This document shows, in pieces, positions 10,112 through 27,948 of a DNA stretch of 64,000 nucleotides. Numbering within the stretch: position 1 is the first letter of the stretch; each line of letters starts with the position of its first letter. Origin of the DNA: a virus. A program made the translations under genes and the position numbers. The notes beneath the pieces were generated by a model. The model did no database searches. It was not told the origin of the DNA and saw nothing but the letters and a program-made list of their open reading frames with translations. The stretch is from the IMG/VR virus record IMGVR_UViG_3300004457_000028, positions 39,295-103,294 of that record; one strand, written 5' to 3'.

Positions 10112-10140
10112 CTTTCTCTCTCCTTCACGGTGTAGTATAA

Positions 10141-10159
10141 TGCCGCTTTATATATCAAC
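10141..10159 (-). promoter_or_regulatory. Early promoter motif, copy 6 (1 mismatch)
   Basis: GTTGATATATAAAGCGGCA. Confidence 0.8.
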
Positions 10160-10715: not shown

Positions 10716-11435
10716 ATGTCGGATGCTTTTTCAGATGCTTTCTCTCTTCTGAAGGCCACTCCTTACAAGAAAAAAGTATTGGCTGATATGCAAGCGGGAA
10801 AGCGTGAACACGCTCAGCGTCGTATGCAAACTGGGCCTACTGAAGACCCTGATGACGAGTTTCAATACGACACCGAAGACGGGTCAAAGAAACCAATTGG
10901 TGAAGACGAAGACACCGGGTATGACATGCGACCTACCGAAGAGCGCCGCAGAGAAAGCGACAACCCTTTTCATCACGATGCCTTAGACACAGTAGACAAG
11001 TCTGCATTTGACTTGGCTTTGAAGGCTTTGCAGCCATCGCCTCATCACATGGATGAAGGGCTTGATGAAAAGCAGATGCGTCACTTCGGAAACATGCAGG
11101 GAATGAAGCAACGCTTTAGCGGCAGTCCTTCTTTTGCTCACGGTATGGAAACATTACCACCAGCACCTATGATGCCTCAAAGTAGTGGTCAGCGAAACTC
11201 TAACACAACGGGAACTTTCCCTCCTAACCCACCGCCACAGCATCCAATGGCTGGTTCTCCGAACACTCAAGAGATGCCGAGAAACATTGAACAGCAAGCA
11301 AGACCTCTTAGCGAATCCAACCCATACGGGAGAATCAAAGAGTCGGAACTACAACGACTCGCTGACGAGTTTGGTATACCATTCGCAAAGGCTTGGACTA
11401 TGTTAAACCCTACTCAAGAAGAAATAAGAGGCTGA
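10716..11435 (+). CDS. Tagged low-complexity protein (putative internal head protein)
   Basis: MSDAFSDAFSLLKA; internal SAFDLALKA; C-terminal PFAKAWTML. Confidence 0.75.
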   Translation: MSDAFSDAFSLLKATPYKKKVLADMQAGKREHAQRRMQTGPTEDPDDEFQYDTEDGSKKPIGEDEDTGYDMRPTEERRRESDNPFHHDALDTVDKSAFDLALKALQPSPHHMDEGLDEKQMRHFGNMQGMKQRFSGSPSFAHGMETLPPAPMMPQSSGQRNSNTTGTFPPNPPPQHPMAGSPNTQEMPRNIEQQARPLSESNPYGRIKESELQRLADEFGIPFAKAWTMLNPTQEEIRG

Positions 11436-11441
11436 TTTGAT

Positions 11442-12986
11442 GTGTCAGCGTTTGATACTGCGTGGTTTTTGATTAAAGCACCCATGTGGTATGGAGACGA
11501 TGAAGAAAAACCACCTGCTAATCCTCGTTATGACATGCTTGAGCACATGTCGTGGGGATTAGACCCAAACTCATGGCAGCAAGCGTGGGAATCCGAAGAC
11601 GGAAACGCTCGTGCTATTGTCAAACCTGACCATAACGAAGGTAACTGGCTTATCTCTCATTACGAAATCAAAGATAATGAGTCTGCACAGGGACATGGTA
11701 GAGGAACTCAGTATCTTCAAGAATTAAAATCTACACTTAGACCCGACGAAGAGCCTGAGATTCATGAGCACCCTTACGATTTTCATGTGACTCATGTAGA
11801 ACCATCAGCCGTAGGATTTTGGGAAAAAATGGTAGACAGAGGCGTAATTGACGGGGCGCACGAAACATCATGGGTGCGAAAAACTCCTGACGGTGATGAG
11901 CATTTTACCCACCCCTACAACCACGAATCAAAGAAACCATACAAACCTCAAATGATTGCTAAAGATGATAGGACAATGGATGTTTGGAAGCGGCGAGCAC
12001 GCAATATGGGTTTAGGAGATGTCCCATACGATTTCTTAGACAGGGACAGCAGTTCAGTGCAAAACTGGAAAGGAGATAGAGAGGGCAAAATAGGTCACGG
12101 TGCTAACCGATATGCATTAGTTGGTGACAAAACTGTAGAAAAGATTCCTAACACCTTTGGTAGAGGACAGGACAAATCTTCGTTGGCTATGATAAACGCT
12201 CTTGCTTCACTCGGTTATCCTATTATTCCTGAGACACCAATCGGCACAGACAACCCTCGCTTTTTCCCGACTGAGCAAGCCAAAGTAGACAGGAGTGATA
12301 ATCTAATACCAAATCATCTTGTTGAACCTGATGATATAGATGAGTTTAACAGAATAAAAGGTAAGTTTGACCAAGACCTACTTGACCTTGATTTTGAAGT
12401 TGCTCAAGAATCTCCACTCGGACAGGCGTTAGATGTAGGGGACATTTACGAAAATGAAGACAATGTTGGCTACAAAGATGGTAAACTCATGGCGATTGAC
12501 CCATATATAGGTCACTTACATGACCTAAACAGGTTTGGACAAGATTTGAGTCAAATGACTGGGCCAATTTCTTCTAAAAATACAATTTATCAAAACAGAC
12601 AAATGCCGAGTAGACACTCAAATTACGGTGGCACAGAGCGACGAGAATACAAGAACAATAAATTGTATCAAGGATTTCAAAATGTAGACCCGATGCAGTT
12701 TAATTCTTTTAATCAACTCTATCATGACAAAGAACAATTCAAACCGTGGGATGCTGTTGAAGAAAAACTGTTTAGTGACCCTCAATCATTTGGTCAATAC
12801 GCTCCTAATTCTAATCAAATGCAACAATTAACTCAACACATGGATAAAGATAATGCAAACTACAAAAATGTAGGCGCTGCGTTAGATTGGATGAACACCC
12901 CTCCTGAGCAAAAGCGCTTGTTTGAGTTTGGTGATGACACTCACGCACGAAGATACCGTAACATGTTGGCATCTTTGAATTACTGA
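11442..12986 (+). CDS. Tagged protein with GNAT acetyltransferase-like and protein-kinase-like domains
   Basis: MSAFDTAWFLIKA; QGHGRGTQYL...AVGFWEKM; IGHGANRYA..VEKIP...DIYENEDNVG..KLMAIDPY. Confidence 0.65.
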   Translation: MSAFDTAWFLIKAPMWYGDDEEKPPANPRYDMLEHMSWGLDPNSWQQAWESEDGNARAIVKPDHNEGNWLISHYEIKDNESAQGHGRGTQYLQELKSTLRPDEEPEIHEHPYDFHVTHVEPSAVGFWEKMVDRGVIDGAHETSWVRKTPDGDEHFTHPYNHESKKPYKPQMIAKDDRTMDVWKRRARNMGLGDVPYDFLDRDSSSVQNWKGDREGKIGHGANRYALVGDKTVEKIPNTFGRGQDKSSLAMINALASLGYPIIPETPIGTDNPRFFPTEQAKVDRSDNLIPNHLVEPDDIDEFNRIKGKFDQDLLDLDFEVAQESPLGQALDVGDIYENEDNVGYKDGKLMAIDPYIGHLHDLNRFGQDLSQMTGPISSKNTIYQNRQMPSRHSNYGGTERREYKNNKLYQGFQNVDPMQFNSFNQLYHDKEQFKPWDAVEEKLFSDPQSFGQYAPNSNQMQQLTQHMDKDNANYKNVGAALDWMNTPPEQKRLFEFGDDTHARRYRNMLASLNY

Positions 12987-13024
12987 CCGCTACTCTTTTA
13001 TCAAGCAACATCGTGGGATGAACG

Positions 13025-13912
13025 ATGACCGCTTTCTCCGATGCCTTTTACATCTTGAAAAATGAGCACTTTTTTGATATTGCATACAACGATTTAGTTG
13101 AAAAAGGTAAAGCAGAGGAGTTTATTCAACTTCAACAGCGAAGACAATTTGTTCTTGATAATGAAAACTCACCTGACCCTGCTATGCGTCAAGCGGCTGA
13201 AGACGAATATCAGAAACTCATGCAAGAAATGAGTGCGAGAAGGGGACAACAACCAATGGGTGGCCCTGAAGGGCCAGTCGGTGAAGGCGCTGCTATGGGC
13301 CAAATGTCTCAACCACCAATGTCTCAAGCCAGTCCATTAGAGAAGGCTTGGGGATTCTTGAAAAAGAATGTAGTTGGTCATCAAGATGGTCAAGAATACA
13401 ATATGCCTGACCCTATCTCATCAATGGCTCAACGCCAACAAGTGCCTGAGACGATGACTCAAACTACACAAACACCTGCTCCGGGTATGTTTGGTCGTTT
13501 CAAACAACCAGTAACTAACACGGCTGAAATCCCAACTGGTCAAATGTCTCTCGGTCAAAGAGAAGGCCCAGTTCAACCAAATGCACCTCACCCAATGGGA
13601 GGGACAAATATAGGACAAGCACCGGGCGCAGAAGTAACTCGTGCTCCACGCCCCGGCCCTTTCAAACCCACCAGCAGTGACCCGATGGGACATGAAGGCC
13701 CATCTTTTCAAACAAGTCTTTCAGGACAAGGCTACTACACTAACGAACAGGGCGAAGCGGTAACTGACAATGTATATGACAGAAAAAACATGTCACGGAT
13801 GGGGAATGACGACTTTGACCTACCCGTTGGGCAAGCGCCAAGATGGATGAGTAGTCAAGATACACCCGATGGTTCGTATGGCGACCAGTTTAACCCAAAC
13901 CGACAGTTTTGA
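13025..13912 (+). CDS. Tagged Pro/Gln/Met-rich protein
   Basis: MTAFSDAFYILKN; SPLEKAWGFLKK. Confidence 0.75.
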   Translation: MTAFSDAFYILKNEHFFDIAYNDLVEKGKAEEFIQLQQRRQFVLDNENSPDPAMRQAAEDEYQKLMQEMSARRGQQPMGGPEGPVGEGAAMGQMSQPPMSQASPLEKAWGFLKKNVVGHQDGQEYNMPDPISSMAQRQQVPETMTQTTQTPAPGMFGRFKQPVTNTAEIPTGQMSLGQREGPVQPNAPHPMGGTNIGQAPGAEVTRAPRPGPFKPTSSDPMGHEGPSFQTSLSGQGYYTNEQGEAVTDNVYDRKNMSRMGNDDFDLPVGQAPRWMSSQDTPDGSYGDQFNPNRQF

Positions 13913-13964
13913 TGTCGCTTCTTAAGCGATATGCTTTTGTTTAGGTATGACTTGGCGTTAGTTA

Positions 13965-15152
13965 ATGCCGAGTGAGAACTATGACTTTGTGCCGTGGGAT
14001 TCTCCCGACGACATTGAGAAGTTTGTTCCGGCTCTTTTAGCGGGAGCAAGAGCGTTAGCACCAAAAATAGCAGGTAAACTTGGTGGTATGAAAACAGCAA
14101 CTGGTGGTTTTTTACAAGGCGCAAAAAAGAAAATAGGCGATGTCGCCAGTAAAGTTGGTATCAAAGGTGGTGGCGCAGCAACAATTGCTACTGAGGGTGC
14201 GGCCAGTGCTACTAAAACAGCGGCCAGTGCTGCGAATGAAGCAGTAGCGTCTGCTGCCCCTAAACCTGACTTGGGAACAAAGATGCCAACTGCTGAGGTT
14301 TCTACTCCTGAACCACCTGCTGCTGAACCAGCAGTTGAAACTCCTGAACCTACAGAACCAAGTGGGAGTGCTGGTAAGAAGAACGATTACAAAAAAGTCG
14401 GTATGCAATTGGCTCAACAAATGCAAGCAGGTGCTGCTCAAAGAAAACAAGCGCAAGAGCAAAGGGCGGCTGATATGGCTCGCCGTGGTGCATCAGTGCA
14501 AACTGGTGAGGCGATGGATATTGCTTGGCGGTTGTTGAAGCGTGATTTGTCCGAGATGACAGATTATGAAATAGACCGAGCAAGGTTCGCTAATGATAAT
14601 CCGGAACTTCAAAGTGAAGAAAGAACAAGGGCTATGGACAGAATGGCAGAGTTTGCTCGTCAAAATGTCACACCGTTTGATTACGGAGATGAAGTTGAAG
14701 AAGCGTATGACGATATAGGCGACCAAGACCATTCGGATTATTTCGGTGAAGACATAGACTCTAATGAGTTGTATCAGTATATTTTAGAAAATGCAGGTCA
14801 AGAAGCGGCGCAAAACTATGTTCAACAATACAAAGACGCTCGTGCAAAGTATGGAGGTAATGCCGCAACTATGGGTCAGTTGGATAACTACGGAATAAGT
14901 AACCAAGGTGATGCAAACGACTTCATAGAAAGTCGTGAAAGAATGACAGGTGACATGCGTAACATCATGCCGAATGACGAAACTGTATTTGACGCTTATC
15001 CTTATCCCGAAGGAGTAGTGTATAACAATAAGTTGTCACCTCCGTTTACCACCACTCCTGAAAACGAATCTAATTTTCAAATGAAATATACAGGCGAACC
15101 AATGGACATCGCCTATCAGTTGTTGAAAAACTGGGAGGGGACTACACAATGA
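13965..15152 (+). CDS. Tagged modular protein with amphipathic Ala/Gly N-terminal region
   Basis: IEK-FVPALLAGARALAPKIAGK; GEAMDIAWRLLK; GEPMDIAYQLLK. Confidence 0.75.
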   Translation: MPSENYDFVPWDSPDDIEKFVPALLAGARALAPKIAGKLGGMKTATGGFLQGAKKKIGDVASKVGIKGGGAATIATEGAASATKTAASAANEAVASAAPKPDLGTKMPTAEVSTPEPPAAEPAVETPEPTEPSGSAGKKNDYKKVGMQLAQQMQAGAAQRKQAQEQRAADMARRGASVQTGEAMDIAWRLLKRDLSEMTDYEIDRARFANDNPELQSEERTRAMDRMAEFARQNVTPFDYGDEVEEAYDDIGDQDHSDYFGEDIDSNELYQYILENAGQEAAQNYVQQYKDARAKYGGNAATMGQLDNYGISNQGDANDFIESRERMTGDMRNIMPNDETVFDAYPYPEGVVYNNKLSPPFTTTPENESNFQMKYTGEPMDIAYQLLKNWEGTTQ

Positions 15153-15325
15153 CAGCATTTGACAACGCTTGGGATTACCTTGAAAAGAAACTATGCCCGA
15201 AAGGTAAAGCAGCAGCAAAGCGTAAGTTTGATGTTTACCCATCAGCGTATGCAAATGGATATGCTGTGCAAGTTTGTCAAGGTAAAATTGGCGTAGGTAA
15301 GAAAAAGAAGGGGAAAAAGAAATGA
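15149..15325 (+). CDS. Tagged small basic protein, 58 aa (not in track)
   Basis: MTAFDNAWDYLEKKLCPKGKAAAKRKFDVYPSAYANGYAVQVCQGK...; ATGA overlaps on both sides. Confidence 0.75.
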   Translation: MTAFDNAWDYLEKKLCPKGKAAAKRKFDVYPSAYANGYAVQVCQGKIGVGKKKKGKKK

Positions 15326-15633
15326 CACGCTGCACTTGTCATGATGTTCTCATTGTCAAAGACCTGAAAAGGTGGTTTGATGAAAAGTGGGTTGATGTCA
15401 GTCGTAAAGACAAAGACGGTAAACACCCACCATGCGGTAGGAACAAAGCAAAGAAATCCAGTAAGGGTTATCCAAAATGCAGACCAAGTGTAAAGGTCAG
15501 CAATAAAACTCCAAAAACTTCAGGCTCAATGTCAGAAGGACAAAAATCCGCTGCTACAAAACGCAAGCGCTCAAAGAAACAAGGCGTAGGTGGAAAGCCT
15601 ACTATAGTCAAAATGGTTGGAGTGATACGATGA
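15322..15633 (+). CDS. Small basic protein resembling a marine-virus family (DUF5872-like, from memory)
   Basis: LKRWFDEKWVDV...CGR...YPKCRPS. Confidence 0.7.
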   Translation: MTRCTCHDVLIVKDLKRWFDEKWVDVSRKDKDGKHPPCGRNKAKKSSKGYPKCRPSVKVSNKTPKTSGSMSEGQKSAATKRKRSKKQGVGGKPTIVKMVGVIR

Positions 15634-15944
15634 CGGCATTTGAGACAGCATGGGATGTTATTGAAAAGGGCAAAAAAAAGTCCAAACCATTCCACGGTTA
15701 CAATCCAAACAAGCATAGTAAAAAAGGTGGACTAAATGCCAAAGGTCGTGCTACTGCTAAGCGTGAAACAGGTGCAAACCTCAAACCCCCTGTTACTAAA
15801 AAACCAAGTTCACTCAAACCCGGTAGTAAGTCGGCAAAGCGTCGTAAATCATTTTGTGCTCGTATGAGTGGAATGAAAGGTGCAACTTCTAAAAAGGGCA
15901 AACTCACTCCTAAAGGTGCATCATTAAAGAGGTGGAACTGTTGA
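15630..15944 (+). CDS. Tagged small basic protein (RRKSFCARM type)
   Basis: MTAFETAWDVIEKG; GGLNAKGR...RRKSFCARM...RWNC. Confidence 0.75.
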   Translation: MTAFETAWDVIEKGKKKSKPFHGYNPNKHSKKGGLNAKGRATAKRETGANLKPPVTKKPSSLKPGSKSAKRRKSFCARMSGMKGATSKKGKLTPKGASLKRWNC

Positions 15945-16099
15945 AAGATAAATGCTGCTGTGGGGCTACAAAAAGCACTCCTTGTGAGTGTATGAAGAAA
16001 GATATTCAGTGCTCGGCTAAAGCCCCCAAGTGTCCTTGTTACAAACTTTTAGACAAGCAAACTGGGAAAACAAAAGTAGCGGTGAAGAAATATGCCTAA
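15941..16099 (+). CDS. Small Cys/Lys-rich metallothionein-like protein, 52 aa (not in track)
   Basis: TTG start after GAGGTGG; MKDKCCCGATKSTPCECMKKDIQCSAKAPKCPCY (8 Cys). Confidence 0.6.
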   Translation: MKDKCCCGATKSTPCECMKKDIQCSAKAPKCPCYKLLDKQTGKTKVAVKKYA

Positions 16100-17681
16100 C
16101 ATTGGTGTCATTCGTAAAGGCCCAGTATACCCAGCCTTTGGGTTGGATAACTTCAATCAATATATTGCACCGCTTGGTCAGGCAATCAACCAAGGACACG
16201 ATAGTTTTGAGCATGTAAACCCCAATGGTGGTGATAGAACTTATTTGAATCAACAAATTAGCAGTAGAATTAACGCAGGTGTTACTGGGAATATACCTGT
16301 TTTTGATAACCTCTCTCTTCAACACGATGCAGATGAGAAAAAACAATTTGAAATGAACTCTCATTATCAATTAGAACATCTAATGAGAACTGCTCCGCAC
16401 ATGTTTAGTGATATAGGAGTAAACCAAAGAATGTTTTTACAAACAGGTGTAATACCTCAAGGTTGGAATAGTAACCCTGCTATGTCATTACCATTTGAAG
16501 ACAAAAAGCGTGTTCGTAATACTAAAACTGGAACTTATGATTTTCACAGTCAAAGAAATATACCTGAACGACGACACCCACTGGTAGTAAAACCACACGA
16601 TATAGGAATGGTTTACGAGCGAGGCCGTGACAATAGATTTTCACCAGTTACCTCTACACCCACTCCTATGTGGCTTGCTGGTGCAAAGTCAAAACATCTT
16701 ACAGCAAGACCATTAGGAGTTGAACAAAACTCAATGCCAAAACATCACGAACTGGAAATCTATGACCGCCATAATAGACATAACACAGCGAATGGTTTCA
16801 AACCCGGAATGACAATGCCTATACAAGCACAAGTTTTGAGACATTCTCATAAGAAACCTGAAGTTCGTGAAGAAGTAGAGCCAGCAGAGCCAGTAGAGTT
16901 AGAAGAAGGAAAGAGACTGAGTGGGGATTTACCTATTTCACTAAAGACTCATTTCAAAACTGGTAAGAATAGCGTTGGAGTAAAAGGCAAGATTCCGGCT
17001 AAGTGGGCTAATGAGGGTAATCCAAACAGTTTACCTCGTAGAATCGCAAACATAAATGATGCACATGATGCTGAAATGATTAGTGATGAAGATAAAAAAA
17101 CTCTTTTGACCTTTCTCTTACAACATTCTATAGAAAGTGGACACTTAAACATGCAAGATTTAACAGGTCAATTTAATCGTAAAAAATGGAATGTCGCTGA
17201 CGATGATGCATACAGTGCTGCTCTTATGGAGATACAAAAGGCTCGTTTTGAAAGAATTACAGACTTGCTATTGAAGGAGCGTAAATCACCTGAAGCCATG
17301 CGTCGTAAGAAAGAATACGATACCAAATACGAGGCTTCTCCTGATAGAGTCAAGTATAGAGAGGATTTGAATAGAGAGCGACACAAGCGTGGTATGTATG
17401 GCGACCACTCTCACCGTGACATTTCACACACCGAAGGTGGTAAATTGACAGTAGAAGACGAGCATAAGAACAGAGCAAGACATTTCAAAGACAAAGGGAC
17501 ACTACGACCTATCACAAAAGGAATCAAGCAAGACCTTGAATTGCTTAGAAACTTAATGGCTGGGCCTATGGATGAGCAAGATAAATCAATAGCACAGGCT
17601 TTACTGACTTCTTTAGACGACTACCATCAAGAAGAAAATGTAGAAAGTAGAAAAGAATTGATGCATCCTTATCCATTCTAA
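16092..17681 (+). CDS. Modular protein with C-terminal HNH-like domain
   Basis: After RFERITDLLLK: YDTKY...RERHKRG..GD...DISH..GG.L..ED...NRAR. Confidence 0.65.
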   Translation: MPNIGVIRKGPVYPAFGLDNFNQYIAPLGQAINQGHDSFEHVNPNGGDRTYLNQQISSRINAGVTGNIPVFDNLSLQHDADEKKQFEMNSHYQLEHLMRTAPHMFSDIGVNQRMFLQTGVIPQGWNSNPAMSLPFEDKKRVRNTKTGTYDFHSQRNIPERRHPLVVKPHDIGMVYERGRDNRFSPVTSTPTPMWLAGAKSKHLTARPLGVEQNSMPKHHELEIYDRHNRHNTANGFKPGMTMPIQAQVLRHSHKKPEVREEVEPAEPVELEEGKRLSGDLPISLKTHFKTGKNSVGVKGKIPAKWANEGNPNSLPRRIANINDAHDAEMISDEDKKTLLTFLLQHSIESGHLNMQDLTGQFNRKKWNVADDDAYSAALMEIQKARFERITDLLLKERKSPEAMRRKKEYDTKYEASPDRVKYREDLNRERHKRGMYGDHSHRDISHTEGGKLTVEDEHKNRARHFKDKGTLRPITKGIKQDLELLRNLMAGPMDEQDKSIAQALLTSLDDYHQEENVESRKELMHPYPF

Positions 17682-17776
17682 CTTGTCTAACTTGTCCGAT
17701 GTATTGTTTACACAATATACTGTATTTACTATTCTTCTAAATGTATAGACTATACAACGGACAACAAGGACAACAC
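17680..17776. repeat. Quasi-palindromic ~100-bp element, copy B
   Basis: aacttgtctaacttgtccgatgt ... atacaacggacaacaaggacaacac. Confidence 0.65.
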
Positions 17777-17790
17777 CCCCAGTAACCTTT

Positions 17791-18408
17791 ATGATGACCC
17801 CCGCAGTGGACAGACCAGTGGACATTATGGATAATCAAGACCATCACGATGCAGAAATACGCCTCATGGGACTAATTTTGGCTCAAAGCACACTGGTTGG
17901 AGTAGCGGTTGGAATCTTTGACGCAAGGGTTTGGCTAACACAAGACAGTGTTTGGATAAATGGTTTCACTTATGCGATGGGTGCATTCTTTGTTCAAGGT
18001 ATAGCATACTACTTCTTTAAGATGTTCTTTGAGCAAAACCTACAAGAAAAGGTAAGACATGGTAACATGGAAAAGCAAAGGAATAATCAATACAGGAGTA
18101 TGCAAACTCAATTTGATAATCGTAGAGCCGACATGGAAATGCGTATGCAAGAAGCACAACTTGAGCGTGAATTACGCTGGATGGAAAATAACCCCGGTAA
18201 GATGCCGCCAAGTTGGGGTGTTCAGGGTGGTGCTCAATCTATGGTAGGTTTTTACGACCAACAAGGTGGGGCTGCTGCTTCTTTTGACGGTAGTAGGATT
18301 CCTACTCATGAGGCTAAGATTTTACAACCACTTACTCTTGGAGTAGAAGAAGACATACCATTGAAGAAAGATGGCACGCCTGATAAAAGATTTGAAAAGA
18401 AATCTTGA
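17791..18408 (+). CDS. Membrane protein (2 predicted TM helices plus coiled coil)
   Basis: Two hydrophobic stretches, then a Q/E/R/M-rich helix. Confidence 0.75.
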   Translation: MMTPAVDRPVDIMDNQDHHDAEIRLMGLILAQSTLVGVAVGIFDARVWLTQDSVWINGFTYAMGAFFVQGIAYYFFKMFFEQNLQEKVRHGNMEKQRNNQYRSMQTQFDNRRADMEMRMQEAQLERELRWMENNPGKMPPSWGVQGGAQSMVGFYDQQGGAAASFDGSRIPTHEAKILQPLTLGVEEDIPLKKDGTPDKRFEKKS

Positions 18409-18421
18409 GTGAGGTTTACTC

Positions 18422-18679: not shown

Positions 18680-18682
18680 TTC

Positions 18683-19405: not shown

Positions 19406-19460
19406 CCAAAAAAGTGACCCCATAGGTAGCCTTTTGAATAACAACTCTTTCGGTGTAAAT

Positions 19461-20590: not shown

Positions 20591-20594
20591 TACG

Positions 20595-21266
20595 ATGTTC
20601 AATCTTGGCGCACAACAACAACAACCAAACGGATTAAATCTCTCAGCAACTGGGGGAGGAATGGGTTACGGTATGCAGCAACCGCAAAGCGGATTTAGTC
20701 TTGGAGCACAACCGATGCAACAACAAATGCAGCAGCAGAATCAAGGATTTATGGCTGGTATGATGGGTAGTGCGGGGATGACACCTCAGCAACAAATGAT
20801 GATGCAGAACGGACAAGTCACTCCTCCATCAGAAATGGAACTTATGAATGCTCTATTACAATCTCAAAATCCTATTCATCGTTTTATCAAAGACGGAGGG
20901 CTTGGTAGTTTGATAGATTTGATTGCAGCGACAACCAGCCTAAGTATGCTAAACATTCTTAAAAACGCCACATTCGTTATTGATGAAGACGAGGGTGGTA
21001 TGAAACTTGACCCTGCAACATTATCTTCTGACTTACAAACCCTAAGCATTGAAAATGTGAGTATGGTCTTGAATAACATGGTTGCTCAAAGCAATCAAAA
21101 GTTCCAAGAGGCTGAAATGCAAAGACAACAGATTATTGCTATGTCTCAACAATCAATGATGGGTGGGGCGTTAAGTGCTGCTTTACAAGATGAAGGTATG
21201 ATGAACAAAATGGGCGGCGGAATTGGTAGCGTTGCTCGTGGGCTTATAGGACTACCAAGAAACTGA
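20595..21266 (+). CDS. Gln/Met/Gly-rich protein
   Basis: GGAGG RBS before ATG 20595; low-complexity N-terminus. Confidence 0.75.
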   Translation: MFNLGAQQQQPNGLNLSATGGGMGYGMQQPQSGFSLGAQPMQQQMQQQNQGFMAGMMGSAGMTPQQQMMMQNGQVTPPSEMELMNALLQSQNPIHRFIKDGGLGSLIDLIAATTSLSMLNILKNATFVIDEDEGGMKLDPATLSSDLQTLSIENVSMVLNNMVAQSNQKFQEAEMQRQQIIAMSQQSMMGGALSAALQDEGMMNKMGGGIGSVARGLIGLPRN

Positions 21267-21275
21267 GGCGATATA

Positions 21276-21527
21276 ATGGTGCAATCGGGTAGTATGAAAG
21301 ATTACGGAATGAGAGTAAGTGAAGCGAGTAGTAGTATTTTTGCTCCAAGTAGAAACATCATTACTGAAATGATTATGGTTCAGTTTATTGCAGTAATTAT
21401 GGCTTGCACAGGTATTCTAATTTTCAAAGGTGACGAAATGAGCAGCGGGGATGTAAGCGTCTTTGTTGTAGGTATTTTTGGAGCGTTTATTTTCTTAACC
21501 ACTCTTTACTCAAGAATCACTCGCTGA
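21276..21527 (+). CDS. Small 2-TM membrane protein
   Basis: Two hydrophobic helices, basic C-terminus. Confidence 0.7.
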   Translation: MVQSGSMKDYGMRVSEASSSIFAPSRNIITEMIMVQFIAVIMACTGILIFKGDEMSSGDVSVFVVGIFGAFIFLTTLYSRITR

Positions 21528-21770
21528 CCACTTGTTTATCGGGCATGAAACTGATGGCGCAAGAGCCTTAATTTTCATGACGCAACTACACAGTCGGCAA
21601 GTCCCCATTCTTTTTTGCATGTAAGGACATTGATAACACTCATCAAGTCTCGCCATGTATAGTTTTTTAGAGACTCTGTTGCCTTTCAGTGCATCTTTTG
21701 ATGCTTTGATTAAATCTTTACCACGCTCTTTGAGAGGTTGCTTTGGAACTCTCTCGTAAGGTGGGAGCAT
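21510..21770 (-). CDS. Cys-rich protein (R..C..C...C..CxC...K...CP..KW type)
   Basis: RLDECYQC...CRLCSCVMKIK...CPINKW; GGAGG RBS. Confidence 0.7.
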   Translation of the reverse strand: MLPPYERVPKQPLKERGKDLIKASKDALKGNRVSKKLYMARLDECYQCPYMQKRMGTCRLCSCVMKIKALAPSVSCPINKWSASDS

Positions 21771-21829
21771 GTTCCTCCGAGTAGGTTTTCATGAAAAAGG
21801 ATTATGGGTAATGCTGCTTTAAGCCAATC

Positions 21830-22513
21830 ATGGCGGAGGGTAACCCAGTATCAAAACGGTCTTGCCCTTTGTGTCAGCACCCAAGTCGTGAAGACTTAGA
21901 GAAGGGACTCCTTGATGGTGAAATCTCTTCTAAACAATTAGACAAAGACATGGGCTGGAGGCTGAACACAACAGACCGTCATTTTCGTAATCACATGGGT
22001 CAGTTCCACATGGCTTCTAATCCTCAGTGCAAAGTTTGTGCTGATGTAGGTAGGGCTGATTTTGAGCGTCGTTATTTTGAAGATGGCTCTCAGTCAGAAA
22101 CAATTGCTGAAGAACTTGGTATTGCTGAGTCATCTGTTTATCATCACATGAAACATCACTTTCAACCGTTAGTTCAAAGAAGTGCGGCTGCTGAGATTAC
22201 ATTAGTCGTAGGAGAAGAGGTTAATGCGCTCAGGTCAAATGTTGAACTCCTCAATGTTAAATTGTCTGAATTGCTCAATGAGGGTAGTGTCCATGAAGAT
22301 GGGTTTGTTAGAGATGCGGTGTCACTGCACAAAGAAGTCAGAGAATCAATAAAGGACTTGTTAAAGATGAACGAACAGTGGAGTCCTACATCTGAAAACA
22401 GTCAAGTCAATAATACAATTAACATCCTCAAGGTTGAACTTGGTAAAGAAAGCCCTGACTCTTGGGCGAGGATTCGTAACTCTTTGTTAGAACATGCGGG
22501 TGACATAAATTGA
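21830..22513 (+). CDS. Tandem Zn-finger/HTH protein, candidate terminase small subunit
   Basis: Two CxxC...HTH...HxxxH repeats, helical hairpin, C-terminal NNTINILKV strand. Confidence 0.55.
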   Translation: MAEGNPVSKRSCPLCQHPSREDLEKGLLDGEISSKQLDKDMGWRLNTTDRHFRNHMGQFHMASNPQCKVCADVGRADFERRYFEDGSQSETIAEELGIAESSVYHHMKHHFQPLVQRSAAAEITLVVGEEVNALRSNVELLNVKLSELLNEGSVHEDGFVRDAVSLHKEVRESIKDLLKMNEQWSPTSENSQVNNTINILKVELGKESPDSWARIRNSLLEHAGDIN

Positions 22514-22911
22514 TGCCAGTTCCTGTTCCTGATTTGCTACAAATGACCCATCCGGGTTATGCGCTGGTAGAGCGTGACTCGCCTGTATCAGCGTATAATG
22601 TTCCAATCTATCTTGATTTTTGTCGTTGTATTACAATGAGATTTGAGCACTACGGTGAGTTAGAGATTACTCCACCTGACCTTTTCAAATTACTCACAAA
22701 GTCTTTTGAAACTGTTTTTGAAGATGATGACCCCGTTACATTTTTCCCAGCATATCATCTTATACCTCGTTTACTTGAAGAGTTTGAGCACACCATAAAA
22801 AATATGACATCTGCATTTGAAGATAGTCCGAGAATTATGTTGTTCTATAGAAAAATAAGTCAAAAACTGCGACAGTGTTTTGAACATCATATACAGGGGG
22901 ATAACACATGA
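22510..22911 (+). CDS. Hypothetical protein
   Basis: ORF track; coupled. Confidence 0.65.
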   Translation: MMPVPVPDLLQMTHPGYALVERDSPVSAYNVPIYLDFCRCITMRFEHYGELEITPPDLFKLLTKSFETVFEDDDPVTFFPAYHLIPRLLEEFEHTIKNMTSAFEDSPRIMLFYRKISQKLRQCFEHHIQGDNT

Positions 22912-24416
22912 CGGGTGGTATGATGGGGCGAACCTCCGACACGAGGATATACAATCCTCGCTCCGAGTCCTCTGAAATGTTCAGGGCTAATCATGAAGAT
23001 GAAAGGCCACCAAGCGGTATGGAGGATGGCCGAGACAAAGAAGCACGCAAAGATAAGCGTCAAGCCAAGAAAGAGGCTGAGGAAAAAGAGGATAAAAAAA
23101 TCCGTCACATCAAAGTCCGTTCACATCACCTTGGCCTTGACAGTGAAAAATCTATTGAGGATAAAGACGAGGTAGATGAAGAAGAAGAGAAGTTCAAACC
23201 TCGTGGTTCAGTTGATAACCCATCTGACCAAACTATGCCAAGCGGCACTGGTGGATTCATGACGAGCCTCGCTATGGGTGCTAAAGGGCCGGGTGCTGCT
23301 CGTGGTGAAATGATTCAGATGTCTGAGCCTATGCAAATGGCTAATCAGTTGTTGAAAGAAGTTACTCCTTACAACGAGTCGCCATTTCCTCATGGAGTTG
23401 CACCTTTAGAGGATGTTTCATGTCCTCATTGTGGGGATAAACTTGAAGGAACATATAGAGAACTTCATACTAACGACCCATTGGTTGAACTCTATTGTAG
23501 GACTTGTGATATTTACGATGATTCTTCTGTGGATAATTATAGTAGTAGTTCACTAAAGTTAAATCCACCAATTATCCAAAAAGGTGAACCAATGGACATC
23601 GCTTGGCAACTATTGAAATCAAAAAAAACGACTGCTAAACGCAGAAAAGAAGAAGGGTATTCAAAGTGGCGACCATCTACAGGACAATTTGAACGCCCAA
23701 AAGGAGGCGGTGACCCTCGTAACGCCACATCAAGGCGTGCAAAGAACATCAGTCGTAATCTCCCGTTAGGTAGAAAGACTGGACTCATGAGGCCGCATCT
23801 TTCAGTTGAGTTTTCTCACCGAGGTCTTGCGAGTAAACAACCAATGAGTAAAGACCCACAAAAATACGGTGCTTATCTTGCATCTCAAGAGGCTCGTAAA
23901 CTACAAGGTGGTGTAAGAAGCACTACGACACCACACATGAGACACAGCCAACGCTCATTCATATCAGGTCAAACTGGTGGTGGTCGTTTGACAAACACTC
24001 TACAATACCCTCGTGTCCCAAGACCACGACTACACGCAGTTCGTGCTCCAAGTATTCAACCACCTAAAATGAAGATGCCCCACTTAGCACGACCTAAGAT
24101 GCCGGGTATGGTGACAATGAGTGAAGATATTCCTCAACACAGTGATATTCTCAAAGCAGGTAATGCATATCAAGCAGCATTGATGCGAATTGCTCTCAAA
24201 GAGATTCGTGAATTGATGCGTGAAAAGAAAGACAAGGATAAGAAAACAAAGGGAAAGGGGAATCCTGATGTTGCTGGTGCTGCGAGTAGTCTACCAAATT
24301 ACGAAGCAAATAATCCTAAGACAGCAACTCGCCCCGAAGGTGGCACTGAAGATGAAAACGACTCACGCCTTTGGGGATTAGCCCCCGGCGATATTGCGGG
24401 GAGTGGGCGGATTTGA
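22908..24416 (+). CDS. Tagged modular basic protein with Zn-ribbon insert
   Basis: SEPMQMANQLLK-[CPHC..CRTC]-GEPMDIAWQLLK. Confidence 0.75.
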   Translation: MTGGMMGRTSDTRIYNPRSESSEMFRANHEDERPPSGMEDGRDKEARKDKRQAKKEAEEKEDKKIRHIKVRSHHLGLDSEKSIEDKDEVDEEEEKFKPRGSVDNPSDQTMPSGTGGFMTSLAMGAKGPGAARGEMIQMSEPMQMANQLLKEVTPYNESPFPHGVAPLEDVSCPHCGDKLEGTYRELHTNDPLVELYCRTCDIYDDSSVDNYSSSSLKLNPPIIQKGEPMDIAWQLLKSKKTTAKRRKEEGYSKWRPSTGQFERPKGGGDPRNATSRRAKNISRNLPLGRKTGLMRPHLSVEFSHRGLASKQPMSKDPQKYGAYLASQEARKLQGGVRSTTTPHMRHSQRSFISGQTGGGRLTNTLQYPRVPRPRLHAVRAPSIQPPKMKMPHLARPKMPGMVTMSEDIPQHSDILKAGNAYQAALMRIALKEIRELMREKKDKDKKTKGKGNPDVAGAASSLPNYEANNPKTATRPEGGTEDENDSRLWGLAPGDIAGSGRI

Positions 24417-26752
24417 ATATCTTAGTTCGTAAGTCAATTATTCTCAAAGGTGACGGTGTATATGGTTACTACAACCATCACGAAACAGGACAACTTCAGC
24501 CTTTTCTAAAAACATCTCCTCCACCCGAAGCATTTCATCCTGACCCTAATGTTCCTGATGTCCCAGCATTCGCTCATTATGGTGCTGCGAAACCTCATCC
24601 TTCGGGTCATCCCGGTATGGGAGAGTTGATTCCCGGTAATTTTACAAAAGGTAAACACGGTGAACATGTTTACCTTGACGAAAATGGTGAGACTCATCAT
24701 CACGGTATTGACGGGGTTCTCCATTCTATTGGTGAAGCACTTGAGCGAAAGGGAATGCTTGGACAAAACCACCCACAGTTCGGTGAACTTACTCCACAAA
24801 ACTTAGTTCAGCGTGCTATTGAAATGACAAACGCTGAGCATCAAGACAAAAGTGGTGCTCAAGACATTCCTGATGTAGATTCAATGAAGCATCGTAAGAT
24901 TCGTGTCGCTGGATATGGTGGTCGTAAACCCACTTCTCGTGCTCATAATACTCACGATGGTGAATACATCACAGCATACACAAACCGACCTAATCGTAAA
25001 GAAAAAGTTGGTGCTATGATTGAATCCTATGGAGTTCCTTACAACCATAATTTACAAAAGATTCTCCTTGAAGGACTCGGACTTAGCGATATGGTGGGTG
25101 CTGAGTTCCTTGACAATCCACACATAGACATCGCAGACCTTCATCCTCGTGGTCGCCGTATCAGAGGTAGAGGTGGAGATGTTATCGGTATGAATAGTAG
25201 AGGCGAGTATACTCTACCTGACAGTCATATTAAGGGTGCTCCAAAAGGAGTAGGTCACGACGCAGCCCATACTGGAATCCAGTCTTGGGAGGTCATGAAT
25301 CATACTCCTGATTTTATGCACATGATGCTTACTCGTCAGCAAACTGGTAATAGTGTAGCAAAAAATAACGCTGCGGTGCATATTACAGAGGCTTTGAAAG
25401 TTATTGACCCTAACAAGATACCTGATGTTGAAGTCCCAATTAACACAACACCGGGAACTACTGGTAAACCTCAGTATACAATGATGAATCTTAGAACAGT
25501 GTTGAGAAGCGAAGGCATGAGGGGTAACATGATTAACGAATTAGCAAAAACCCCAGCGTTCAATATGCTTTTTGGTCGTAGTAACAGTGGGAGTGCCGCA
25601 AAACCCGGTGTTGGTAAGAGAGCGTTTCAACATATTCTTGATGCCTTCGGTGGAAAAGAAGGTGGAACTTCTTTCAGTGATTTAACAAGTCATACAGTAG
25701 CAGGTGACCATTTAAGAACAGAAGATGGTATGAAAACCACAGAAGGTCATGGGACTCACAAAAGCGCTGCTGAGTTTTATGCAAAGGCTATGCTAAGCGG
25801 TGCTCACGATGAGCATGATAGCGCATTACGAGCCTACATGCCAAAAGATGCTGAAGGTAACATTGATGCTGATGTTATCAAAAATATGGGGTTAAATCTC
25901 CCAAGTTACGATACAGTAGAACAGCGAAGACAAGGCACTCAGGCTATTGCTGATTTAATTAGTGAGGCATTTGGTCATCAAACTCGCCGTCAGTTACCTG
26001 AAAAATTGCCAACTTCAGGATTAGCGTCTCGTAATGTCATAGGTTATCCTGAGCAAATTATTGAGCGTTTACCTGAACATATCCCATTCTACGATGATTT
26101 AGGATTAGCACCAGTTGAAAGAGCAGGTATCACTGCCCCTAAACCAACCGTCACTCCTTCTACAGAAAGACCCCCACAACCTCCACAACCCCCACTACCA
26201 GTTGCTGTCGCTCCCCCAGCAACTGAGGCACTACCTCCGCCTACACCCCAAAGGGGAGCACCTTCTTTCAGACCACAAAGCCCTGAGTTAGTTGCAGCAA
26301 GACAACATGTTGGTCGTGCTGACCCAGCATCTTTGCGTCAAATCATGGATGCCGCTGGTGCAAGAGTCCCTCAAGGACAAGGTATGCAACTCAGTCCTCA
26401 AGAACAACAGTATCAACAAACCATGGGTGACCCACGACAACAACTTCTCACTCAATACATGAAAGGACAAGCCCAAGAATTGTCCCCTATGGATAGAGTC
26501 ATGAAAGCGATGGAGCAAATGCAAATGGATGACGCTCGTAGCGATTCAAAAATCATGAAGCACGCTCTACCTCGCCAAGTCAATATCGCTGACCTTCACG
26601 GAATCAATCATCTCGCAAAGAGTATTGAACTCACACCTGTTGATGTTCGCTCAATCGCATACGCTACAGGAGACTGGGAGCGCATCGCAAAACGACTCAA
26701 TGTTTCTACAGATGTTGTCAAGGTCGTCAAAGTAAGCGTGGGTGGTGTCTGA
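24413..26752 (+). CDS. Large putative virion/internal protein
   Basis: TTG start overlapping upstream stop (MNILVRKSIILKG); His-rich, Pro linker, C-terminal HTH-like. Confidence 0.75.
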   Translation: MNILVRKSIILKGDGVYGYYNHHETGQLQPFLKTSPPPEAFHPDPNVPDVPAFAHYGAAKPHPSGHPGMGELIPGNFTKGKHGEHVYLDENGETHHHGIDGVLHSIGEALERKGMLGQNHPQFGELTPQNLVQRAIEMTNAEHQDKSGAQDIPDVDSMKHRKIRVAGYGGRKPTSRAHNTHDGEYITAYTNRPNRKEKVGAMIESYGVPYNHNLQKILLEGLGLSDMVGAEFLDNPHIDIADLHPRGRRIRGRGGDVIGMNSRGEYTLPDSHIKGAPKGVGHDAAHTGIQSWEVMNHTPDFMHMMLTRQQTGNSVAKNNAAVHITEALKVIDPNKIPDVEVPINTTPGTTGKPQYTMMNLRTVLRSEGMRGNMINELAKTPAFNMLFGRSNSGSAAKPGVGKRAFQHILDAFGGKEGGTSFSDLTSHTVAGDHLRTEDGMKTTEGHGTHKSAAEFYAKAMLSGAHDEHDSALRAYMPKDAEGNIDADVIKNMGLNLPSYDTVEQRRQGTQAIADLISEAFGHQTRRQLPEKLPTSGLASRNVIGYPEQIIERLPEHIPFYDDLGLAPVERAGITAPKPTVTPSTERPPQPPQPPLPVAVAPPATEALPPPTPQRGAPSFRPQSPELVAARQHVGRADPASLRQIMDAAGARVPQGQGMQLSPQEQQYQQTMGDPRQQLLTQYMKGQAQELSPMDRVMKAMEQMQMDDARSDSKIMKHALPRQVNIADLHGINHLAKSIELTPVDVRSIAYATGDWERIAKRLNVSTDVVKVVKVSVGGV

Positions 26753-27948
26753 TGGGTCAAGTCTATGTTATCCGTAAAGAGGCTGGTGTAGCGTTATCGC
26801 CCGGTGGTATTCAGCAAATATGGATGCCGGGTCAATCAAACGAACCTCAACGATTCGCTGGTGTTACTGGTGGTATCGGTAACTTACAACGACACCCAGT
26901 AACTAATCAATACGAAGCAGCACCAATTATGAGTGAACCTGATGATAAAGGTAGACAGACCGAACTCGGTCATCGTGCAGGTGACATATACGGCGCAAGA
27001 GGTCTAAACATTAACCCAAAGTTCAATCAAAATCTCTCTTTTGGCCCAGTAACTGCTGAACAAGCACCTATACACGAGGCTCAACAAAGAGTGTTTGACC
27101 GAAGTGCAAGGTATGGTCAAACAGGTGCTAATGTCGGGAGAGGACTTGCTGCTGGTATTGGTGTTTTAGCAGGTGCTGTGAATCTCGCAAACGCTGGTGC
27201 TCAAGGTCAAGATGCTATTACTGGTGGATTAGGTGCTGCTCAAATGGGTAGTATGGCTTACCAACAAGGTAAGAAACCATTAGCCGAAGCAGGGGGTGAA
27301 GTTGGAGCACAAGTTGGTGCTCGTAGTGTTGGTGTAACTAAACCTGAAGTTGCTTCACCGAACCCAGTTGCTGTAGCACCTCCTACTAACACTCATACTG
27401 AAGATGAAATGACAAACATGCGGTCAGGAAAAGAAGTCACAATGTCTACAGACAGGCATGGGAATCCAGTTCCGTTTACCAGCGAGGCCGCACGAAGAGG
27501 TGCTAAGCATAGAAGTGACCTAAACATAGGTAGGAATGTAGACCCCGATACAAACCAGTCACCAGTAGACCACATGGGTATGCCTACGGCAGTAGGAGTT
27601 GAAGAGACAGGTATGGTAACTGGTGGTGGTGACCAATCTACATGGCCGACTGGTTCTCAACAAGGGGATGAACAAGCACAAGCAGCGGCTAATAAAGTTC
27701 AAGTCGCTCCAGCAACTACCAACACTTCTCAACAAACAGTGTCGCAAAGCGCCGCTGCAATCGCTGCTGAAACTGGTCAAGGACAGTTACCCGGAGCACC
27801 CGACCCCAATGCTAATTCCGCTGCGGCTGATGTGATTGCTGCAAACACAACTGCTGCTGAGGCTATGAGTGGTAAAAAGCCCAGTTCAACAGACCATTCT
27901 ATAGTCAATCAATCTTTCAATCCTATGCGATTCATCGGGGTGATTTGA
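26752..27948 (+). CDS. Putative ejection/internal protein with Gly-zipper helix
   Basis: MGQVYVIRKE; GRGLAAGIGVLAGAVNLANAG. Confidence 0.65.
   Translation: MGQVYVIRKEAGVALSPGGIQQIWMPGQSNEPQRFAGVTGGIGNLQRHPVTNQYEAAPIMSEPDDKGRQTELGHRAGDIYGARGLNINPKFNQNLSFGPVTAEQAPIHEAQQRVFDRSARYGQTGANVGRGLAAGIGVLAGAVNLANAGAQGQDAITGGLGAAQMGSMAYQQGKKPLAEAGGEVGAQVGARSVGVTKPEVASPNPVAVAPPTNTHTEDEMTNMRSGKEVTMSTDRHGNPVPFTSEAARRGAKHRSDLNIGRNVDPDTNQSPVDHMGMPTAVGVEETGMVTGGGDQSTWPTGSQQGDEQAQAAANKVQVAPATTNTSQQTVSQSAAAIAAETGQGQLPGAPDPNANSAAADVIAANTTAAEAMSGKKPSSTDHSIVNQSFNPMRFIGVI

Follow-up and report, generated by a model that had tools for sequence, protein, structure and literature searches.

[quoted passage not shown] The T4 CTS is also the subject of Mullaney and Black 1996, as cited in PMC9024508. 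A capsid localization signal has been described at the N-terminus of DarB of phage P1 (PMC9024508), and the giant phages phiKZ and SPN3US possess propeptides as well as processed ejection or inner-body proteins (PMC10052503, PMC7411985).

The DNA analyzed here (the window) comprises the right-hand 64 kb of the 103-kb genome of a magrovirus, a tailed virus whose hosts are marine Poseidoniales archaea. Approximately a dozen unrelated proteins of this genome share a helix of 10–12 residues ending in Lys (referred to below as the tag), which is a three-turn amphipathic helix with the order capping residue, P/A, F/M, D/E, x, A, W, x, hydrophobic, L, K. We found no mention of a shared tag in three papers on magroviruses, and no publications combining magroviruses with metaproteomics. 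The tagged ORFs adjoin the head-assembly genes and lie on both sides of a conserved operon (17791–22911), which encodes transmembrane proteins and a GTPase resembling Roc/MMR_HSR1 (weak Pfam hits). Those at 10.7–16 kb occupy a hypervariable zone at the junction of the leftward and rightward genes, the most variable part of the genome. A promoter-like 18-mer is present in approx. 14 copies, exclusively on the minus strand and each upstream of leftward genes; none of these copies precedes a tagged gene. Disordered stretches rich in M, P, Q and G are confined to the C-terminal tail of the portal protein and to five proteins encoded in the block that precedes the terminase gene.

A strict pattern, [FML]-[DESAQ]-x-A-[WFY]-x-x-[LIVM]-(E)-K, is matched nine times in the 103-kb genome versus 0.32 times expected (mean of 200 residue-shuffled six-frame translations; maximum 2). 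All nine matches are located in plus-strand ORFs, between 10728 and 23592 of the window, and the three minus-strand frames contain none. A profile HMM, for which noise remains below approx. 4 bits, sets the tags apart and also recovers the weaker copies at 11376 and 13331 and both E-K variants. The recurrence reported in the original prediction is thus real, and all of its tag coordinates are exact. Its statement that unrelated sequences follow the tag also holds, since BLASTP (1e-4) detected no mutual similarity between the post-tag sequences of this genome. The copies of the tag and of a second leader type are as follows:

10716–10754, plus strand: N-terminal tag of ORF 10716–11435, A-F form in which F replaces W (strict pattern; HMM 14.9 bits)
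10998–11024, plus strand: decayed internal tag of ORF 10716–11435 (comparison with the ortholog in the related genome G001)
11376–11408, plus strand: weak tag near the C-terminus of ORF 10716–11435, Asn replacing Lys (HMM 4.9 bits)
11442–11477, plus strand: N-terminal tag of ORF 11442–12986 (HMM 16.1 bits; family alignment)
13025–13105, plus strand: N-terminal tag of ORF 13025–13912 plus a second tag-like helix at 13067–13105 (pattern and HMM)
13331–13363, plus strand: internal tag of ORF 13025–13912 (strict pattern; HMM 13.1 bits)
14505–14540, plus strand: internal tag 1 of ORF 13965–15152, G-E-A-M form (HMM 19.0 bits)
15093–15128, plus strand: internal-type tag, 7 residues from the C-terminus of ORF 13965–15152 (HMM 18.2 bits)
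15149–15187, plus strand: N-terminal tag, E-K variant, of a 58-aa basic protein (pattern, HMM, phrog_27331)
15630–15668, plus strand: N-terminal tag, E-K variant, of a 104-aa basic DUF6321 protein (Pfam)
16092–16118, plus strand: second leader type, x-G-V-I-R-K, at the N-terminus of ORF 16092–17681 (recurs in relatives)
17244–17276, plus strand: tag-like leader ending in L-L-L-K, within ORF 16092–17681 (conserved K junction)
23322–23357, plus strand: internal tag variant of polyprotein ORF 22908–24416, A-N replacing A-W (loose pattern)
23583–23618, plus strand: internal tag of ORF 22908–24416 (HMM 20.2 bits)
24413–24433, plus strand: second leader type, further copy (recurs in relatives)
26752–26778, plus strand: second leader type, further copy (recurs in relatives)

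In G001, the ortholog of the decayed copy at 10998 is a full N-terminal tag placed directly before the same downstream sequence, and the counterpart of the 11376 copy has kept its K. The cargo of ORF 11442–12986 consists of a GNAT-like lead and a protein-kinase-like C-terminal domain (weak kinase-fold matches), and AF2 places a helix at residues 3–10, followed by a disordered linker. The module downstream of the 14505 tag matches L136:3219–4703, which likewise follows an internal-type tag, from the first residue past the K. The 15093 copy is probably a remnant of truncation, because the G001 ortholog is longer and has four tags. The 58-aa basic protein at 15149 corresponds to the N-terminal half of DUF5872 (phrog_27331). 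In the 104-aa protein at 15630, Pfam assigns residues 29–102 to DUF6321, and matches in 303 marine phage records start mostly at residues 22–33 and never before residue 8, which places the tag outside the domain. The leader at 17244 precedes a phrog_6437-like domain at a conserved hydrophobic-x-K junction; in G001, G002 and G004 this junction is kept and the upstream sequence is variable. The 23322 tag belongs to DNA repeat family D3 and has orthologous tags in G001, while the 23583 tag precedes a conserved, strongly basic 264-aa module that is homologous between genomes. The second N-terminal type (x-G-V-[IV]-R-K), also noticed in the original prediction, does recur in relatives, and in L135 a hybrid of this leader with an internal tag stands before the same cargo.

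A profile search of four full genomes identified approx. 51 tags (10–16 per genome), all on the terminase strand and flanking the terminase gene; in G004 some are also present between the terminase and portal genes. No real tag was found in the replication and tail genes of these four genomes; the refuting condition named in the original prediction, equal frequency in early or tail proteins or in shuffled sequences, did not hold. One additional G004 profile match elsewhere, without the W and the K, was counted as noise. The 263 N-terminally tagged ORFs found in IMG/VR form 144 cargo clusters that are unrelated to each other, and across these the tag alone can be aligned. The tag is a portable unit at the protein level, carried by unrelated cargo and limited to genes next to those for head assembly. 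The few annotations available for the cargo are regulator-like or enzyme-like and none is structural; the tagged proteins include small, very basic proteins and zinc ribbons. Neither a MuF domain nor any other shared domain was found in them using Pfam and PHROGs, the common part being the 10–12 residues; a polymorphic toxin or polyvalent protein system of the MuF type, which would have a large shared N-terminal domain anchoring it in the head, together with variable effectors at the C-terminus, was rejected.

The terminal Lys acts as a module boundary: homology of the cargo begins within 2 residues of it, and conservation of the tag stops there. In approx. 10 cases the same cargo occurs either as a stand-alone N-tagged ORF or after an internal tag. 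Modules are gained and lost exactly at the Lys; a GNAT-like module, for example, is absent from P0018 relative to P0001 exactly between two K sites, and an orthologous polyprotein has 2 tags in this genome versus 4 in G001. Among distinct tag cores the final residue is K in 56 cases and R in none, which points to recognition by an enzyme. The residue past the K is A in 26% and M in 16% of cases, and never P.

The window encodes a candidate for such an enzyme. In phage HK97, the S78 protease gp4 cuts the capsid protein after Lys103 and is targeted into the procapsid by its C-terminal tail, and the S78 proteases of HK97-type systems act inside procapsids. The corresponding features of the window are:

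33546–40602, plus strand: head-interior genes lying between those for portal and protease (33546, 33896, 34255 and ORF 35173, encoding a 1809-aa protein), examined for [LI][LI]K sites
40644–42002, plus strand: S78 prohead protease fused to the scaffold (Pfam Peptidase_S78)
42129–42146, plus strand: [ED]-[LI]-L-K site followed by S/A, 34 residues into the major capsid protein (conservation)

The protease-scaffold protein is the candidate enzyme for a cut after the tag Lys. It contains 13 occurrences of [LIVMF]-x-K-[SAG] versus 2.5 expected, and each of the nine conserved K in its scaffold part has S, A or G as the next residue. The site in the major capsid protein (MCP) is a candidate maturation cut: its [ED]-[LI]-L-K motif is identical in 80/80 loci compared (MCP 76–97% identical), the site persists in relatives at 63–75% identity, where D or I variants occur, and it aligns with M-S-K|A-D of HVTV-1. 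Conserved [LI][LI]K sites are also present in 33546, 33896 and 35173, and 34255 has none; D-L-L-K|S near the N-terminus of the 1809-aa protein is still conserved where identity is 35%. Observed versus expected numbers of [LI][LI]K are 14/13.8 in early genes, 3/4.3 in tail genes and, for the head module, 13/5.4. These last 13 sites all lie within five head-interior proteins (the S78 protease-scaffold, the N-terminus of the capsid protein and three neighbours), and the K is kept in three other genomes at 11 of them. The hydrophobic-hydrophobic-K end of the tag matches a motif that is enriched and conserved solely in head-interior proteins, and the residues following the K at the head-module sites (A, S, M, G) are those favoured past the tags, although a small residue follows the K in only 44% of N-terminal and approx. 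25% of internal tags versus 9/9 scaffold sites.

Some of the weaker copies listed in the original prediction (26483, 35320 and 41808) are missed by the profile. They prove to be conserved K sites, with hydrophobic-hydrophobic-K followed by a small residue in orthologs, and we take them for candidate cleavage sites rather than tags. The claim that the scaffold itself carries the tag found no support: its conserved C-terminal motif, which it shares with the 120-aa protein at 33896, is a different one.

We tentatively favor the view, to which we give slightly less than an even chance, that the tag is a capsid-targeting and processing tag working like the T4 CTS. In magroviruses it would then serve as a portable label by which a large and rapidly changing repertoire of accessory proteins is addressed and processed. 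The hydrophobic face of the helix (F/M, A-W, L) would dock the cargo onto a procapsid component, probably the scaffold part of the protease-scaffold protein. The S78 prohead protease would next cut the invariant hydrophobic-hydrophobic-Lys end, so that N-tagged proteins and multi-tag polyproteins release single modules. The cargo (small very basic proteins, zinc ribbons, a kinase-like and possibly a GNAT-like enzyme) would be retained in the head with the DNA and may reach the next host cell. For docking, cleavage and delivery we argue by analogy with T4, and the capsid-cargo reading of the original prediction is upheld in part, by the modular nature of the tag, its restriction to the neighbourhood of the head-assembly genes, the module boundary at the Lys and the match of the tag end to the head-protein motif. 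The absence of the promoter-like 18-mer before tagged genes and the distribution of the M/P/Q/G-rich stretches also count in its favour. Against it count the less restricted post-K residue, the low AF2 confidence of the tag helix and the distinct scaffold motif, and with a cut after the K, the upstream module would keep the internal tag at its C-terminus. The tag is also absent from HVTV-1, which has the same capsid protein, portal and S78 protease-scaffold, and from related haloviruses with the same head module, which indicates that any tag receptor is magrovirus-specific.

These absences would suit a docking helix for a hub outside the capsid, either a host factor or the GTPase-plus-membrane-protein operon, at which many accessory or host-takeover proteins are gathered and where the Lys serves for recognition or modification instead of cutting. 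We consider this unlikely, if still a serious competitor. The F/M-x3-W-x2-L spacing is typical of helices that bind in clefts as short linear motifs, the operon has tagged genes on both sides, the annotated cargo is not structural, and the hypervariable zone could also house host-takeover genes that are not packaged. However, such a hub leaves unexplained why the tag end matches a motif restricted to head-interior proteins, why its Lys is never Arg and why module borders fall exactly there. It also fits poorly with the tagged genes between terminase and portal in G004, and with cellular genomes, in which no tag-bearing protein was found except on a viral contig in a single-cell genome. A related and rather improbable idea is that the tag, instead of marking proteins for the capsid, is the address code with which a virus-encoded pathway sorts proteins in archaea. 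A single helix whose Lys is obligatory could route more than 140 unrelated families to a hub such as the same operon, or the families could be coupled to this hub covalently through the Lys; if true, this would be a kind of effector sorting not yet described for any prokaryotic virus.

The multi-tag ORFs, the insertion of modules at tag boundaries and the invariant Lys could also be reconciled with a signal for polyprotein processing or maturation only, the cut after the Lys being made in the cytoplasm and capsid loading playing no part. The protease could be the S78 enzyme or an ArdC-type zincin encoded in the window (3226–4188), whose zincin-like MPTase-PolyVal domain is of a type thought to process polyvalent proteins of phages. 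This explanation appears doubtful: most tags occupy the extreme N-terminus of single-module proteins, from which a cut would free a mere 12-residue peptide, and the eight conserved helix positions exceed the needs of a cut site. Moreover, the S78 enzymes of HK97-type systems work within procapsids, and G001, whose record is 90% complete and has 15 tags, contains no match to the ArdC-like gene. It is very improbable that the repeat is a nucleic-acid feature with the peptide as a by-product, i.e. recombination linkers promoting the shuffling of modules, or internal ribosome-binding and start sites at which the Met of the internal form is the initiator. Exchange of modules does occur at the tags, and internal tags always have Met at the position of the Phe of N-terminal tags, preceded mostly by the codons GGY/AGY, then GAA, then CCA; with GGT as the first codon, this resembles a weak Shine-Dalgarno sequence. 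However, a GGT codon with a good Shine-Dalgarno match is present in just 15/99 internal tags, the N-terminal tags share the helix without these nucleotides, and a hydrophobic residue 6 positions upstream is kept at the protein level. Compared with one another, tag copies show identities of 0.61, 0.74 and 0.35 at the first, second and third codon positions, respectively; the third positions are thus nearly random, which indicates selection on the protein.

The proposed capsid tag can be set beside several known systems. Encapsulins are cellular compartments with HK97-fold shells, in which a short cargo-loading peptide of the G-S-L type, at either terminus of unrelated enzymes, binds the inside of the shell without proteolysis. 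The short peptide on unrelated proteins and the HK97-fold shell are points of likeness; we rejected identity with this peptide, as the tag consensus is not G-S-L and cellular genomes lack the tag except on the viral contig. With HK97 the magrovirus shares the S78 family (Pfam) and candidate sites in which a Lys precedes, and a small residue follows, the cut. What the magrovirus enzyme recognizes is deduced from motif statistics only, and no set of tagged cargo proteins is known from HK97. As with P1 DarB, a large anti-restriction enzyme whose N-terminal segment suffices to bring it, or a reporter, into the head, a terminal segment would provide the address; the DarB signal, in contrast, comprises approx. 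30 residues of one protein, with no cross-family motif and no link to a protease site. In the giant phages, many head-internal proteins are likewise cleaved by the prohead protease at a short consensus sequence, with large ones yielding several pieces, and cargo is ejected into the host. Their small-x-Glu consensus is, however, a cut site only, without a 10-residue docking helix, their genomes are at least 240 kb, and there is no homology to the magrovirus system.

Like the tag, the T4 CTS is a short, conserved helix at the N-terminus of proteins that evolve fast and are otherwise unrelated, with a cargo comprising small basic proteins and host-modifying enzymes; the resemblance would extend to an end motif cut by the head protease. 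The two peptides have no sequence similarity, and the magrovirus consensus differs from the T4 sequence. T4 uses gp21, which cuts after L/I-x-Glu, whereas the magrovirus enzyme belongs to family S78 and would cut after Lys. Unlike its T4 counterpart, the tag also occurs inside polyproteins, in viruses of an archaeal host, and its 10–16 copies per genome and at least 144 cargo families compare with a handful in T4. Given the different protease and tag consensus, the magrovirus system would be T4-like in its working, but not a member of the same family.

A short helix of 10-12 residues ending in Lys (here called the tag) recurs on unrelated proteins encoded beside the head-assembly genes. The original prediction had interpreted it as a capsid-cargo address that is cut after the Lys. 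Every coordinate predicted for its copies proved exact, and the enrichment is real: the strict pattern occurs nine times in the whole genome (shuffle mean 0.32, maximum 2), always within real plus-strand ORFs (10728-23592) and never on the other strand. Chance or low complexity as the origin of the tag was ruled out by the shuffles together with strand and frame controls. The profile search proposed along with the prediction, performed with a profile built from 29 copies on this genome (G000) and three related full magrovirus genomes (G001, G002 and G004), cleanly separated tags from noise and revealed 10, 15, 11 and 15 tags, respectively.

Alignment of 224 distinct copies gave the consensus [G/M/S]-[E/S/T]-[P/A]-[M/F]-[D/E]-x-A-W-x-[L/V/I]-L-K, in which A (96%), K (92%), L (87%) and W (75%) are the most constant residues, with no conservation beyond the K. 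The N-terminal form reads M-x-A/P-F-D/E-x-A-W, and the internal form hydrophobic-x-x-G/S-E-P-M-D/E-x-A-W. When the last position of the pattern was left free, 56 distinct cores ended in K and none in R; five ended in E, and those checked in ORF translations were x-E-K variants with the K one residue on. As judged from its residue pattern, the tag is a capped amphipathic helix of three turns, one face of which carries F/M, W and L. A low-confidence AF2 model of ORF 11442 has residues 3-10 helical, followed by a disordered linker of 30 residues.

What follows the tag is highly diverse. A set of 263 distinct ORFs opening with the tag pattern (a few of them from the Met of an internal tag) divides into 144 cargo clusters, across which the alignable part is the tag only. 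The possibility that the tag is the conserved edge of a repeated domain was ruled out, the modules within one genome being unrelated. In approximately 10 verified cases, the same cargo is found either as a stand-alone N-tagged gene or behind an internal tag in a larger ORF, and the homology begins no more than 2 residues from the K. Within the ORF 11442 family, the tag is constant and a GNAT-like module is present or absent; in one member the tag K is joined straight to a sequence that elsewhere stands behind a second site, I-A-K. The conserved polyprotein 22908-24416 carries two tags in G000 and four in G001, with the additional modules sitting between tags. DUF6321 was found in 303 marine phage records, where most matches start at residues 22-33 and none ahead of residue 8; the tag was therefore added to a pre-existing domain.

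Pfam names only 9 of the 144 cargo representatives and PHROGs a few further; the named cargo comprises DUF6321, GP88, a DnaJ-type zinc finger, HTH and ParB-C. The tagged products of G000 include two small, very basic proteins (the DUF6321 protein and the N-terminal half of DUF5872), a zinc ribbon, a basic tail of 264 residues and disordered M/P/Q/G-rich stretches. The confidently modelled C-terminal domain of ORF 11442 weakly resembles protein kinases (Foldseek E 6.6e-3; by VIA, Z 7.8 and rmsd 3.8 over 136 residues), while GNAT is a lead only for its N-terminal part. Disordered stretches with 50-88% M+P+Q+G occur in just six proteins among the approx. 105 ORFs of the whole genome, namely the portal, in its C-terminal tail (31719-33500), and ORFs 10716, 13025, 20577, 22908 and 24371; assembly of these proteins with one another, inside the head or in a condensate, is conceivable. 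The small basic DUF5872 and DUF6321 proteins (15149-15944; DUF5872 is split into two ORFs overlapping by ATGA) are common to hundreds of marine cyanophages and pelagiphages, and are therefore shared, within the same waters, by viruses of bacteria and of archaea. A search for loci related to ORF 16092-17681 gave no match, and a check of the HTH protein 21830-22513 as the small terminase brought no confirmation.

The IMG/VR record of G000 (103,294 bp, estimated to be 95% complete; window G000:C1:39295-103294) encodes tail genes in this region as well as the following head genes.

Head genes of the window (start position and product)
27945, large terminase
31719, portal
40644, S78 prohead protease fused to scaffold
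42045, HK97-type capsid protein

In all four genomes the tags are encoded on the same strand as the terminase, 4-19 kb upstream of its gene, and G004 has further tags between terminase and portal. Neither beyond the portal nor in the replication module did the profile detect a tag in the four full genomes, apart from one G004 match lacking W and K, which was counted as noise. By profile and shuffles, then, the tag is not equally frequent in shuffled sequence or in these other modules. The IMG/VR scan yielded 39 stretches with the internal form and at least 120 with the N-terminal form, the densest among the N-terminal matches listed having 11 tagged genes within 11 kb.

A promoter-like 18-mer with a TATA-like core, GTTGATATATAAAGCAGC, is present in approx. 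14 copies (window 1123-10159 and the genome upstream), all on the minus strand ahead of leftward gene groups and never preceding tagged genes; it is likely the promoter of an early or replication regulon. The leftward and rightward genes are separated by a GC-rich non-coding stretch of 460 bp (10160-10620) with approximately eight copies of (T)AGTTACGC or TTGTTACGG, possibly an array of binding sites, an origin or a packaging site. An element of approx. 100 bp with AACTTGTCCGA repeats occurs twice (8732-8838 and 17671-17776); its second copy, which divides the variable tagged genes from the conserved block starting at 17791, may be a transcription boundary. Among the leftward genes, a minus-strand ArdC-N plus zincin MPTase-PolyVal protein adjoins an 864-aa SNF2 helicase (3226-6938); both are present in G002 and G004, with no match in the 90%-complete record of G001. 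An HMGL-like (pyruvate carboxyltransferase-type) TIM-barrel gene (29551-30465) stands directly behind the large terminase, an unusual position for a metabolic-type enzyme.

The K-ended signature of the tag reappears in the head proteins.

Occurrence of [LI][LI]K in gene groups of the genome
Early genes: 14 observed, 13.8 expected
Tail genes: 3 observed, 4.3 expected
Block upstream of the terminase (the tags): 14 observed, 3.2 expected
Terminase-to-capsid module: 13 observed, 5.4 expected

All 13 sites of the terminase-to-capsid module fall within five proteins (33546, 33896, 35173, 40644 and 42045), and the K is kept at 11 of them in G001, G002 and G004, at identities down to 35%. Three of them stand close to the N-terminus, at residue 13 in the protease, 18 in the 1809-aa protein and 34 in the capsid protein. 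The last of these sites is identical in 80 of 80 loci, persists with D or I variants in relatives as little as 63% identical, and aligns with the junction between K and A-D of HVTV-1; residue 35 could not be placed on the HK97 fold in an AF2 model (pLDDT 33), and a profile search against PDB sequences matched the C-terminal half alone. The HK97 protease, of the same family as the S78 protease here, cuts after Lys103. In the protease-scaffold, [LIVMF]-x-K-[SAG] occurs 13 times (2.5 expected), the largest excess of the genome in absolute number, and each of the nine conserved K residues of the scaffold part is followed by S, A or G. The residues after the head-module K (A, S, M, G) are those favoured after the tags: the K of N-terminal tags is followed by A (26%), M (16%), G (9%) or S (9%), almost never by V, I, L, T or F, and never by P. 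Both the second leader type, G-V-I/V-R-K, and the L-L-L-K leader of 17244 stand before the same phrog_6437-like domain, at a conserved K junction.

The prediction that the tag itself is present in the scaffold, the 793-aa and the 1809-aa proteins was not borne out: the profile gave no match, and these proteins have conserved hydrophobic-hydrophobic-K sites instead. The 1809-aa protein (35173-40602), located between portal and protease, has such N-proximal sites, L-L-K followed by S and I-L-K, and may be considered a candidate processed head protein; its residues 1384-1482 weakly match a domain of ATP-dependent DNA ligases (E 7e-4, which does not pass the Pfam cut-off). The protease-scaffold (41946-41978) and the 120-aa protein 33896 (34193-34225) share a terminal motif, M-[ST]-W-[DE]-E-[IV]-H-x-[ML]-A, confined in four genomes to exactly these two plus-strand proteins, plus one looser minus-strand match in G004. 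It is this tail, distinct from the tag, by which scaffold-type proteins probably bind the capsid.

On sequence grounds, the tag acts like a docking helix with a candidate protease site attached. That it would load proteins into the capsid, where the S78 protease would cut them, is a reading we hold tentatively, at somewhat less than an even chance. Against it, the position following the tag K is less constrained than at the scaffold sites, the tag is absent from haloviruses with the same head genes (none was detected in the first 80 kb of HVTV-1), and the scaffold's own conserved C-terminal motif, common to the 33896 protein, differs from the tag. The helix might instead be a docking code for another hub, e.g. 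the conserved GTPase and membrane operon at 17791-22911, which we regard as rather unlikely; processing at the K without capsid loading seems less probable still.

A nucleic-acid explanation of the repeat is very improbable. Identity among tag copies is 0.61, 0.74 and 0.35 at the first, second and third codon positions, and selection therefore acts on the tag at the protein level; since the third positions vary freely, an element acting as DNA, or a linker for recombination, was rejected. Support for internal start sites preceded by a Shine-Dalgarno sequence is weak, a good match being present in only 15 of 99 cases.

In the surface ocean, magroviruses belong to the most abundant viruses, and the function of most of their genes is not known. 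The capsid protein of G000 shares 32-33% identity with its counterparts in the haloarchaeal siphoviruses HVTV-1, HCTV-1 and HCTV-5, and IMG/VR holds more than 599 close relatives (contigs up to approx. 107 kb). G000 matches the magroviruses, viruses of Marine Group II (Poseidoniales) archaea (PMC5434244). Among 185,579 species genomes scanned, several matches to the tag occurred only in a viral contig of a Poseidoniales single-cell genome; the remainder were chance helices unrelated to the tag (in Chloroflexota thioredoxin-like proteins and a Glaciecola permease), which dismisses a host-derived motif. This magrovirus-sized contig (CACGHY010000002.1; 106,262 bp), from a genome labelled Candidatus Poseidoniales AG-422-I20, encodes five N-terminal tags and a capsid protein 63% identical to that of G000. 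The Poseidoniales host assignment is thereby supported, and the contig gives direct evidence, at the single-cell level, of the host that this virus group infects.

The magrovirus papers examined (among them PMC5434244) make no mention of the tag, which, at approx. 10% of the genes per genome, ties more than 140 protein families of little-known function to one pathway. Should the tag load capsids, archaeal viruses would have their first reported cargo-delivery system, with the largest tagged cargo set of any tailed virus. It would then provide a list of candidate injected effectors (e.g. anti-defence and host-takeover proteins) in an uncultured pair of host and virus, a prediction of the specificity of an S78 prohead protease, and a ready-made peptide to load foreign proteins into HK97-fold shells.

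A docking helix with a candidate protease site follows the logic of the T4 capsid targeting sequence, which is all that the diverse internal proteins of that phage have in common (PMC3012670). The kind of system (a targeting peptide and a head protease) is already known from T4; what is new here lies in the tag sequence, the family of the protease, the scale, an internal form within polyproteins and a host that is an archaeon.
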